From sequence record NZ_CP102531.1: a stretch of DNA of 64,000 bases. One strand, 5' to 3'. The notes under the pieces are model-generated. The model was not told the origin of the DNA, did not search any database, and was given only the letters and a program-made list of their open reading frames with translations. How positions within the stretch are numbered: the stretch's first letter is position 1; each line of letters begins with the position of its first letter. Position numbers and translations under genes: made by a program. Positions 1,651 through 3,220 of this stretch are shown here, one piece after another. The stretch is from a plasmid.

Positions 1651-2446
1651 GAGATGGACATCTACCCAGCTATTGATACTATGTTAAAGGTTAAGCAGCT
1701 AACAATGCTTCTAATTCGTCCACGACTGAGAACCCGATGAGACTTAACTCTCGTCGGGTTCTTTTGCGTATTGCGTGAACAATTTCCACACCGCTCAACG
1801 TTGCACTAGCGGTTCGAATGCTTTGAAAGCTTGCTGAGCGGACACGATGACGTTTAATGAATCGGTGGTCCTGTTCAATCAAATTATTTCGATATTTGGA
1901 ACATTGGTGGGCTGATTTGCTCAAATAGTCTTGCTTTATCAGGTGCTTCACTGCTTTCAGTGTTGCCCGATATTGATCAGTGACTAATCGATCAGGCCGA
2001 CCATTGGTCGTCAAGAGACGCTTCAAAAAGTGATAGGATGCGGTATAATCGCGGTGTTTTCGTAGCTCAAAATCCATGGTCAAACCGTTACTGTCAATAG
2101 CGCGATACAAATAGGCCCAACGGCCTTTAACTCGAATATAGGTCTCATCGATTCGCCAACTTTTAGCGTGAGCTGTTTGATGCCGACGCCATAGAGCCTT
2201 AAAGATGGGGCCATAGTGATGAACCCAACGCATGACCGTGGTGTGATGAACAGTGATACCCCGATCCCGAAGCAATTCAACGATGTCACGATAGCTGAGA
2301 CTGAATCTGAAATAGTAGCCAACGGCTACTAAGATGATGTCCTTTTGAAAGTGGCGTCCCTTAAAGTGATTCATGCGCGCAATCCCTCGTTTCTTGGCAC
2401 CCAGTATACTAAAATCAAGTCAGCGAGGAAAATTTGCACCAGAACC
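1629..2446 (-). mobile_element. IS6-family insertion sequence, copy 1 (about 818 bp, IS1216/IS257-like)
   Basis: Terminal inverted repeats GGTTCTGGTGCAAA / GGATCTGGTGCAAA at both ends; single 227-aa transposase; identical to the copies at 22216-23033 and 26930-27747. Confidence 0.85.
1691..2374 (-). CDS. tnp: IS6-family DDE transposase (227 aa)
   Basis: MNHFKGRHFQKD... N-terminus and length typical of IS6 (IS26/IS257/IS1216) transposases; three protein-identical copies in the window. Confidence 0.9.
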   Translation of the reverse strand: MNHFKGRHFQKDIILVAVGYYFRFSLSYRDIVELLRDRGITVHHTTVMRWVHHYGPIFKALWRRHQTAHAKSWRIDETYIRVKGRWAYLYRAIDSNGLTMDFELRKHRDYTASYHFLKRLLTTNGRPDRLVTDQYRATLKAVKHLIKQDYLSKSAHQCSKYRNNLIEQDHRFIKRHRVRSASFQSIRTASATLSGVEIVHAIRKRTRRELSLIGFSVVDELEALLAA

Positions 2447-2626
2447 CTTGAAACCAGTCTCAAGGCACAAAAAAGCCGCCCACTGGCGGTACAGCAGACG
2501 GCGTAGCACTTAGCCACTCACATGTTAAGTGTACCGTATCTTGATGAGAATGCAACCAGTTAAACGAGCACTGTGGATAAGCTCTATCAGTGTTGATGGA
2601 CAGGGCTTTCCCGTGCTATAATATAG

Positions 2627-2755
2627 ACACAAACAGGGAGCACCCCCGAAAGAGTGCTCCCCTAGCAGAGCCGTTAAAGACGGCTGGCATTTCAACTTAC
2701 AATCAAAAGACCGTCAGCCTTCAGCCACGAAGTTTAATGACGGTCTTTTTGATTG
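2627..2755 (+). ncRNA. candidate antitoxin sRNA of an Fst/Lpt-like type I TA, convergent with the toxin and ending in a shared bidirectional terminator
   Basis: Sigma70-like promoter TTGATG-18nt-TATAAT at 2591-2626; strong internal hairpin gggagcaccccc/gaaagagtgctcccc; terminator hairpin aaagaccgtcag...tgacggtcttttt at 2706-2755 overlaps the 3' end of the toxin gene. Confidence 0.35.
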
Positions 2756-2853
2756 TCTTGCATTGCTTTTACAAGGGTCACAAAGGTGTTCACAAGTGAC
2801 AGTACGAAACTGCCAAATGCTAACATCAACGTGATTGCCTCAGCAACGGACAA
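2734..2853 (-). CDS. candidate type I toxin, Fst/Lpt-like hydrophobic peptide (39 aa from TTG, 30 aa from ATG at 2826)
   Basis: Peptide (L)SVAEAITLMLAFGSFVLSLVNTFVTLVKAMQDNQKDRH has a single TM helix plus charged C-tail like Fst-family toxins; AAGGAGG RBS 7 nt upstream of the TTG; the 5'UTR motif ttaatgacggt is complementary to the 3' end accgtcattaa. Confidence 0.5.
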   Translation of the reverse strand: MSVAEAITLMLAFGSFVLSLVNTFVTLVKAMQDNQKDRH

Positions 2854-3013
2854 ACAGGCACCTCCTTTCACTTAGATTTTGGACGTCTTTCATAGGCGAC
2901 CACCTCTTTGTGATTGGATTTGCCAACCGTCATTAACTTTTCTGCTAATAATATTATAGCATATAAACGGCTATATCCATAGAGCCACAAGGGATATGGC
3001 CGTTTTGGTGTCC

Positions 3014-3212
3014 GCGGGTCTGCGAGCTTTTTGGCTTAACGTTAGTCGGCCAAGGCCGAGGAGCGTGGGCGTCTGCCCCGCCCACGCGCTCCAGGCAACG
3101 TACTACGTCGTCTCATATAGCCAATCAAGTTTCTGTTAGGTAACGGACGAGGGAAACCACCTCGTCTTGTTACGTCGAGACAAGGGACGCCAAAAAGCTC
3201 GCAGACCCGGTA
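3014..3212. repeat. highly structured element: 20-bp perfect inverted repeat (gggtctgcgagctttttggc / gccaaaaagctcgcagaccc) flanking about 155 bp containing three further GC-rich hairpins
   Basis: Read directly from the sequence; lies immediately 3' of the last tra gene (stop at 3221). Confidence 0.4.
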
Positions 3213-3220
3213 ATAGAAAA

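Follow-up and report, generated by a model that had tools for sequence, protein, structure and literature searches.

In toxin-antitoxin (TA) systems of type I from Bacillus subtilis, the mRNA for the toxin and its antitoxin overlap by 100-140 nt at the 3' end, the toxin mRNA undergoes RNase III-dependent decay, and the bsrG RNA carries a helix named P1 (PMC6562991, PMC7430163). For the experimentally probed pairs bsrG/SR4 and bsrE/SR5, the interaction proceeds from the antitoxin terminator loop to loop L3 of the toxin RNA, then to the 3' part of helix P1 and then to the toxin terminator loop (PMC7430163). Systems like bsrE and bsrH are stated to occur also in Lactobacillus and Enterococcus (PMC6562991), and four TxpA-family genes were listed in L. 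casei ATCC 334 (Fozo et al., 2010, PMC2887945). In E. faecalis, EF3263 has an antisense RNA of ~110 nt over its 3' untranslated region (UTR) and is toxic on overexpression in E. coli (PMC2887945). Moreover, a pair of RNAs, rli28 and RatA, was reported on Listeria plasmids (Anast et al., 2022, PMC9484302). The TxpA/RatA and BsrE-G-H families are included in T1TAdb. Here we describe a locus around positions 2590-2960 in a 64,000-nucleotide (64-kb) stretch of plasmid record NZ_CP102531.1, which is called the window below. It is very probably a type I TA module of the TxpA/BsrG/BsrE/BsrH-RatA/SR4/SR5 family (Hol_Tox for the peptide; RatA and rli28 for the RNAs), residing on a Lacticaseibacillus paracasei conjugative plasmid of the pBD-II/pW56 type. 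The original prediction had read the locus as a type I TA system of a lactobacillus plasmid, with a small hydrophobic toxin and a convergent antisense small RNA (sRNA), and this general reading is supported.

Family of the toxin and its antitoxin RNA

The putative toxin is encoded on the minus strand by an open reading frame (ORF) at 2734-2853, which starts with TTG (2853-2851), stops with TAA (2736-2734) and gives the 39-amino-acid (aa) peptide MSVAEAITLMLAFGSFVLSLVNTFVTLVKAMQDNQKDRH, a single-helix membrane peptide of the Hol_Tox or TxpA/BsrE type. In Pfam, this peptide matched Hol_Tox (PF16935) with 41.5 bits against a gathering cut-off of 23.3 (E 1.2e-10), and PF16935 was the sole match at E<=10 for the window peptide and for all 9 aligned homologs. 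NCBIfam gave weak, sub-threshold matches to the competence inhibitor ComI and to PepG1, a type I toxin of S. aureus. In the PDB, the only chain matched by sequence at E<=10 was 7NS1, a peptide of 31 aa, and no structure of the Fst type came up. The identical coding sequence (CDS) on pBD-II is annotated in RefSeq as 'putative holin-like toxin' (WP_003568776.1). In the homolog alignment, residues M1, S2, V3, A6, L9, M10, F13, G14, F16 and L20 were invariant. The N-terminus MSV[AS][DE]A is kept in homologs whose start codons are ATG, GTG or TTG, and this conservation supports the TTG start of the 39-aa form. It also ruled out a 45-aa form from a GTG and a 30-aa form from an internal ATG, so that of the 30-39 aa given for this ORF at first the longer size holds and the shorter one lacks support from homologs. 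The ribosome-binding sequence AAGGAGG, which had also been noticed, is present as a Shine-Dalgarno (SD) sequence read directly from the minus strand at 2861-2867, 7 nt 5' of the TTG.

On the plus strand, a sigma-70-type promoter occupies 2593-2622, with the -35 element TTGATG at 2593-2598, an 18-nt spacer and the extended -10 element TGCTATAAT at 2614-2622; it scored 10/12 with the TG extension in the promoter scan. The promoter TTGATG-N18-TATAAT of the original prediction is thus present, though at these coordinates and not at 2591-2626. It would drive a RatA-like antitoxin sRNA of ~128 nt with predicted ends at 2629 and 2756, the 5' end being placed ~7 nt 3' of the -10 element and the 3' end after the U-run at 2751-2756. 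The predicted 128-nt molecule folds into three hairpins (-53.3 kcal/mol, z = -8.0), namely H1 at 2636-2661, which is the strong GC hairpin that had been expected in the sRNA, H2 at 2665-2688 (core 2669-2685) and the terminator T1' at 2699-2756, followed by UUUUUGAUUG. The Rfam family RatA (RF01776) matched the plus strand at 2619-2708 over its full length (model positions 1-91) with 48.8 bits (gathering score 49, E 1.2e-5). Similarly, the Listeria family rli28 (RF01492) matched the minus strand at 2783-2968 (model positions 1-186) with 69.1 bits, against a cut-off of 45. We take 'rli28' here to be the toxin mRNA itself, because the model spans the toxin promoter, the leader and the first half of the toxin ORF. 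These two were the sole such Rfam matches in the window.

The structure of the sRNA was compared among 16 homologs. Double changes were found in 8 of the 8 pairs of H1, and the covariation score was reached by none of 500 shuffles. H2 is invariant in sequence, the alignment holding an invariant CCGTT...GACGG hairpin; the terminator arm was left unaligned by MAFFT, so that RNAalifold evaluated H1 and H2 only. Such invariance is expected if H2 has to imitate the leader strand of the toxin transcript. In the same sense, nt 35-74 of RatA and nt 1-40 of the toxin mRNA are identical at 30 of 40 positions.

Organization of the toxin mRNA and its closing helix

The toxin promoter on the minus strand (2951-2961) consists of the extended -10 element TGCTATAATAT (hexamer 2958-2953) and a poor -35 element, TATGGA, giving an inferred transcription start site (TSS) at ~2946. 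The same 11 nt, TGCTATAATAT, stand in inverted orientation at the sRNA promoter (2614-2624), and the two promoters differ in the -35 element (TTGATG for the sRNA, TATGGA for the toxin). The promoter scan did not list the toxin promoter because of this weak -35. A weaker promoter for the toxin and a stronger one for the antitoxin are the usual arrangement in type I systems. The full-length toxin mRNA is predicted to be ~320 nt (2626-2946, minus strand), from the TSS to a terminator T2, and a short form of ~245 nt ending at a hairpin T1 (~2700) is possible. The long form (319 nt) folds with -124 kcal/mol (z = -7.2), and the short form gives z = -5.3.

The hairpin T1/T1' at 2699-2756 has a perfect 12-bp stem (2705-2716 with 2738-2749), which can be extended, and U-runs on both strands. 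It serves as the predicted sRNA terminator on the plus strand; on the minus strand it forms a stem-loop that follows or overlaps the last toxin codons and is possibly a partial terminator. The sRNA terminator ends at ~2756, within the last 6-7 toxin codons (stop 2734-2736), so that the two transcription units show a convergent 3' overlap at the sequence level. Thus, the ~130-nt size of the sRNA and a hairpin usable on both strands, which the original prediction placed at 2706-2755 as a shared bidirectional terminator, are both found, but a second hairpin, T2, stands on the toxin strand at 2625-2662. T2 (12 bp, 7 of them GC; 2662-2635), which the terminator scan listed, carries the tail GUUUGUGUCU, complements RatA H1 and is where the toxin mRNA is predicted to terminate. 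It is therefore probable that the toxin mRNA does not end at the shared terminator alone, and perhaps most of it ends elsewhere. Terminator-like sites numbered 7, compared with 1.6 expected in shuffles. Among the homologs examined, a U-rich tract comes after T2 on the toxin strand, as with ...CUUCCCUUUUUUUGG in locus L008, and the U-tract of T1 is consistently on the RatA strand and often absent from the toxin strand; in locus L014, for instance, T1 is followed by CAACAAAAU on the toxin strand and by UUUUUUGUC on the RatA strand. From these sequences we infer a family-wide layout in which the sRNA would end at T1' and the toxin mRNA at T2, the sRNA being wholly antisense to the toxin 3'UTR and the last codons, with an overlap of ~125 nt in the window.

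The first 40 nt of the toxin mRNA (2908-2947, minus strand) and the spacer between T1 and T2 in its 3'UTR (2663-2702, minus strand) form the two strands of a predicted P1-like closing helix. They were detected by the repeat finder as a 40-nt inverted repeat with 75% complementarity, and the spacer is the exact complement of hairpin 2 of RatA and its flanks. The 5' strand includes the 11-mer at 2936-2926 and the core GACGGUUGGCA. Of the leader element ttaatgacggt, the original prediction stated that it is complementary both to the mRNA's own 3' end and to the sRNA. The inverted repeat indeed exists, as the 11-mer TTAATGACGGT at 2734-2744 and 2926-2936, and it is a fragment of the 40-nt repeat, but in the sRNA the element stands in the same sense and is not complementary. 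The sRNA is able to pair with the toxin leader over just 8 nt, GACCGUCA (2710-2717). Within the mRNA, the leader forms a duplex of 27 bp with the T1-T2 spacer (-39.7 kcal/mol) and one of 12-14 bp with the 5' arm of T1 (-17.6 kcal/mol). The 11-mer and the T1 5' arm were considered as the main partner of the leader and given up in favour of the longer and stronger spacer pairing; the T1-arm pairing was kept as an alternative. The minimum free energy (MFE) fold of the 319-nt mRNA contains the closing helix, and the leader UCC (2918-2916) pairs there with GGA of the SD sequence.

The closing helix was further compared among related loci, for which the spacer segments were checked by hand. In 12 lineages, the mean energy of the leader/spacer duplex was -26.3 kcal/mol for cognate pairs and -19.2 kcal/mol for non-cognate pairs, and none of 100,000 permutations was as good. 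In each of the 13 lineages tested, the global MFE fold of the full-length mRNA joined the 5' 45 nt to the spacer by 16-27 bp. Moreover, the outer part of the helix is altered on both strands between lineages: leader UAGCAGA faces spacer UCUGCUA in the window, GACAAG faces CUUGUC in L003, GUAGAG faces CUCUAC in L005 and L012, GGUUAU faces AUAACC in L017, and GUGACAAU faces AUUGUCA in L022. Both pairings of the leader, with the T1 5' arm and with the spacer, are kept in diverged lineages with different sequences.

The leader also carries a pseudo-SD, GAGGUGG (2906-2900), and an AUG (2893-2891), which begins an upstream ORF (uORF) of 17 codons that overlaps the SD and the start of the toxin; the whole element spans 2840-2906 (minus strand). 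The motif GGUGGU..CUUAUG is kept at the nucleotide level in most leaders, and the peptide and length of the uORF vary (2-17 codons). In L013 the uORF is in frame with the toxin, and in the BsrG-like loci L022 and L023 the toxin itself uses this motif as its SD and start.

It can be speculated that the leader, once freed because the short form lacks the spacer or because RatA occupies it, would pair with the start codon (GACGG:UUGUC) and with UGCC beside the SD, a pairing that is not well conserved. This would parallel the second function of SR4. We also considered, as a rather improbable extension, that the mutually exclusive partners of the leader constitute a co-transcriptional switch. Pairing with the T1 5' arm would then keep T1 from terminating transcription, so that the long, closed and RatA-sensitive form results, and transcripts ended at T1 would be translationally inert owing to the leader on the start codon (GACGG:UUGUC); the pseudo-SD and AUG of the leader might add a mok-like translational coupling. 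No description of such a switch was found for the TxpA/BsrG/RatA family in the literature examined.

Proposed mechanism and rival explanations

By analogy with the B. subtilis systems, the module likely acts in plasmid addiction through 3'-end pairing and RNase III-dependent decay. A weak promoter, with only an extended -10 element, would drive the toxin mRNA for the 39-aa membrane peptide, and the stronger convergent promoter would drive the RatA-like sRNA. Comparison with the homologs suggests that the toxin mRNA mostly reads through T1 to T2, opposite the start of the sRNA, and that its first 40 nt pair with the T1-T2 spacer, so that the molecule would be closed, its 5' end tucked away and the anti-SD UCC set against the SD. 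As in the B. subtilis pairs, the terminator loop of the sRNA may first contact the T1 loop of the mRNA; the pairing would spread through the spacer and displace the mRNA's own 5' strand, which is mimicked by RatA nt 35-74, and RNase III would cut the long duplex, leading to degradation of the toxin mRNA. On loss of the plasmid, the less stable sRNA would vanish first, the peptide would be made and the membrane damaged.

Several points weigh against this reading of the locus. All RNA ends are predicted, and the RatA score of the window lies 0.2 bits under the Rfam gathering threshold. The U-tract of T2, GUUUGUGUCU, is weaker in the window than in the L. plantarum homologs, and T1 has UUUUGAUUG on the toxin strand; therefore, a substantial fraction of the toxin mRNA may stop at T1. 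Such a short mRNA would overlap the sRNA by only ~55 nt and would be devoid of the closing helix. Sequestration of the SD in the predicted folds is partial and differs between lineages, and the covariation tests rest on sequences that are related and on duplexes predicted from energies, not on a curated structural alignment. In addition, toxicity of the peptide cannot be taken for granted, since TxpA has no toxicity in E. coli (PMC2887945) and BsrE acts only weakly (PMC7430163).

The original prediction assigned the toxin to the Fst/Ldr/Lpt type and the RNA pair to the RNA I/RNA II logic of par from pAD1, in which direct repeats let RNA II pair with RNA I at its 5' region and start codon, one bidirectional terminator serving both RNAs. 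The locus does have convergent RNAs with a hairpin usable on both strands and a peptide made of one hydrophobic helix and a charged tail, and Lpt modules do occur on Lacticaseibacillus plasmids (PMC5608710). However, published Lpt and Lpt-like toxins are 29 aa long, share the core AIIAPLLVGVFLLL and match Fst by HHpred, and the Lpt antitoxin is a 74-nt RNA with a 24-nt repeat spanning the start codon (PMC5608710, PMC11352940), whereas the sRNA here is ~128 nt and lies over the 3' end of the ORF. The suggested comparison with the Lpt toxin and Fst-family profiles gave no match, and Hol_Tox was found instead: no Fst_toxin profile matched the peptide or the nine aligned homologs in Pfam at E<=10, and the core AIIAPLLVGVFLLL, with its A-P-x-x-V-G motif, is absent from the peptide and from every ORF in all six frames of the window. 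Likewise, the Rfam scan of the window gave RatA and rli28, and no Fst or RNAII family. The best duplex of the sRNA was -42.4 kcal/mol with the leader (shuffle mean -43.0) and -23.7 kcal/mol with the translation initiation region (shuffle mean -23.8), and shuffled sRNAs paired at least as well in 157 of 300 cases for the leader/5'UTR and in 146 of 300 for the start region. The sRNA thus has no above-chance complementarity to the toxin start region, and the par-pAD1 logic is therefore not applicable. Because of the match to PF16935 only, the absent core, the Rfam assignment and the chance-level pairing, we reject the Fst/Lpt/par-pAD1 assignment, which is already refuted at the level of family membership and hardly credible as a whole.

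Two other explanations accept the RNA architecture or the family and differ in function. The peptide might be a small membrane protein with a physiological role, in stress response or in competence like ComI, whose expression is tuned by the sRNA. The weak NCBIfam match to ComI and the weak or absent toxicity of BsrE and of TxpA in E. coli would suit such a role, as would the existence of chromosomal copies, of which LSEI_0550 gave a heat-stress phenotype upon transposon insertion at its promoter (PMC5890138), and the strong stress regulation of rli28 on Listeria plasmids (PMC9484302). On the other hand, the locus shows a strong association with plasmids, whatever their mobility class, and is retained on a 3.25-kb plasmid with otherwise only rep annotated, and de-repressed TxpA, BsrG and EF3263 kill or arrest cells; we regard a physiological role as unlikely. 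It is still less probable, indeed very unlikely, that the locus is a decaying or silent relic in which the ORF is no longer expressed and only the sRNA functions. The non-ATG start (TTG) and the poor -35 element might suggest this, and at least one homolog, L007, lacks the toxin leader and yet has a high-scoring RatA. However, a non-ATG start and a weak promoter are nothing unusual for a type I toxin, many homologs with conserved peptides likewise start with TTG or GTG, and in the window the -10 element, leader, SD, ORF, closing helix and both terminators are intact and identical on several independent plasmids.

Distribution, context and relation to known systems

The region of the module is 100% identical to the L. 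paracasei plasmids pBD-II and pW56 and to a plasmid of the Actimel strain, and 2.5 kb upstream of the module matches the same plasmids. At >=90% identity, the locus is present on 29 Lacticaseibacillus plasmids. Among them, the annotation of the 3.25-kb pRCEID3.2 comprises two CDS only, rep and the toxin, which fits a maintenance function. More distant tblastn homologs (44-59% identity) are on plasmids of Latilactobacillus, Enterococcus, Lactiplantibacillus, Levilactobacillus and Pediococcus. Scans of collections with strict peptide patterns added loci in Listeria, Weissella, Defluviitaleaceae, Alicyclobacillus and viral contigs (10 loci from the genome scan, 6 from the viral scan), and tblastn of phage genomes gave one marginal match. 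In 9 of 9 plasmid loci (8 distant ones and pRCEID3.2), RatA was found convergent just past the toxin stop with 39.6-90.2 bits, and rli28 covered the 5' part of the toxin in most of them. The 10 genome loci contained RatA in 3 cases and rli28 in 7; one of them, L018, matched the Rfam family BsrG above its cut-off (57.3 bits). Overall, rli28 and RatA stood together in most homologous loci that were examined, on plasmids of Lactobacillaceae and Enterococcus and on some chromosomes of Listeria.

Some of these homologs deviate from the common arrangement. In L007 (L. plantarum HOM3201 plasmid p2, 560-930), which has the top RatA score of 90.2 bits and an intact toxin ORF, unrelated sequence stands in place of the promoter of the toxin and of the closing helix's 5' strand, and this locus may be a silenced toxin with a retained antitoxin. 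L010 (L. plantarum pMK01, 35-376 and 580-915) has two complete rli28/RatA modules in tandem at a distance of ~545 bp, whose toxins measure 34 and 45 aa. In L013 and L015 (Listeria newyorkensis / L. rustica, 695-1204), rli28 scored 76-79 bits, no RatA match was found downstream, the leader-spacer duplex is weaker (-20.7 kcal/mol) and the same strand carries a purine riboswitch ~300 nt downstream; the antitoxin there is possibly diverged or replaced.

In the window, the CDS neighbours of the module are an IS6 transposase, a DUF3991 protein, a relaxase and MobC. The IS6-family transposase gene (1691-2374, minus strand) adjoins the module, as does a strong terminator-like hairpin at 2502-2475 of the minus strand with the tail TTTTTTGTGC; the origin of the pBD-II record falls at ~2440 of the window. 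At 3008-3216, a GC-rich element of ~200 nt with several hairpins lies between the module and the operon that holds the relaxase and the DUF3991/primase-like gene; it is closed by a perfect inverted repeat of 21 bp (3015-3035 and 3189-3209). Folded as single-stranded DNA, the element gives -56.4 kcal/mol (z = -7.2), and no Rfam family matched it; it may represent an element of the oriT or ssi type.

The family of this module is already known, its CDS being annotated in RefSeq and its L. casei homologs listed in 2010; the module opens no new kind of biology, and it is the family assignment that is corrected. In the literature, no experimental work on this module in Lacticaseibacillus was found, and the surveys of type I systems in Lacticaseibacillus by the Lpt group make no mention of the TxpA/BsrE-RatA type. 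Lacticaseibacillus plasmids carry at least two unrelated type I TA families, the experimentally studied Lpt (Fst-type) and the TxpA/BsrE-RatA type. The module bears on how stably plasmids are kept in dairy and probiotic strains of L. paracasei and L. rhamnosus, and on the design of stable or curable vectors. Moreover, according to the comparative data, the 5'-3' closing helix of the B. subtilis bsrG RNA is conserved and covaries in the copies of Lactobacillaceae, Enterococcus, Listeria and Weissella, which supports treating the Listeria 'rli28' as a toxin mRNA and not as a non-coding sRNA.

With Lpt/RNA II of the Fst family and par of pAD1, the module shares the convergent type I arrangement, the location on plasmids and a presumed maintenance role, and with Lpt also the host genus. 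It differs from Lpt/RNA II in the toxin family (Fst_toxin with the core AIIAPLLVGVFLLL, 29 aa), in the size of the antitoxin (74 nt) and in the direct repeats over the start codon, in place of which there is a 3' overlap here. The closure of the toxin mRNA by pairing of 5' and 3' elements is reminiscent of hok/Sok of plasmid R1 and aapA1/IsoA1 of H. pylori, though the peptides and RNAs are unrelated and the antisense RNAs of those systems target the 5' part, whereas here it is the closing helix that is targeted, in its 3' strand. In Listeria, the plasmid-borne rli28/RatA loci (pLM80) have the same Rfam pair and the same convergent geometry; in contrast to our interpretation of the window, rli28 was catalogued there among the non-coding sRNAs, and its role in a TA pair is no more than a proposal. 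The peptide identity to the window toxin is 50-56% for Listeria and 55% for the Enterococcus plasmid copies, and the EF3263 antisense RNA (~110 nt) is close in size to the predicted sRNA of the window.

The txpA/RatA pair of the B. subtilis skin element is similar in the full-length match to the RatA model, in the 3'-end overlap and in the expected RNase III-dependent decay, and differs in that TxpA has 59 aa and RatA 222 nt; the RatA score of the window is marginal (48.8 bits), compared with up to 90 bits in the L. plantarum homologs. Finally, the module resembles bsrE/SR5, bsrH/as-bsrH and bsrG/SR4 of B. subtilis prophages in its single-transmembrane Hol_Tox peptide with the N-terminal signature M-S/T-V-x-E/D-A-L-x-L-M-x-x-F-G, BsrE and BsrH being likened to it by description. 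It also resembles them in the convergent antitoxin with three stem-loops, in the order of stem-loop, 3' strand of P1 and terminator in the toxin RNA, and in the partly sequestered SD. Unlike these prophage-borne systems, the module is plasmid-borne in Lactobacillaceae, its peptide has 39 aa with the tail QDNQKDRH (29-38 aa in the others) and its sRNA is predicted to be ~128 nt (163-200 nt). The overlap of ~125 nt fits the 100-140 nt of B. subtilis, and the predicted closing helix corresponds to helix P1 of the bsrG RNA as this helix is described in a review.

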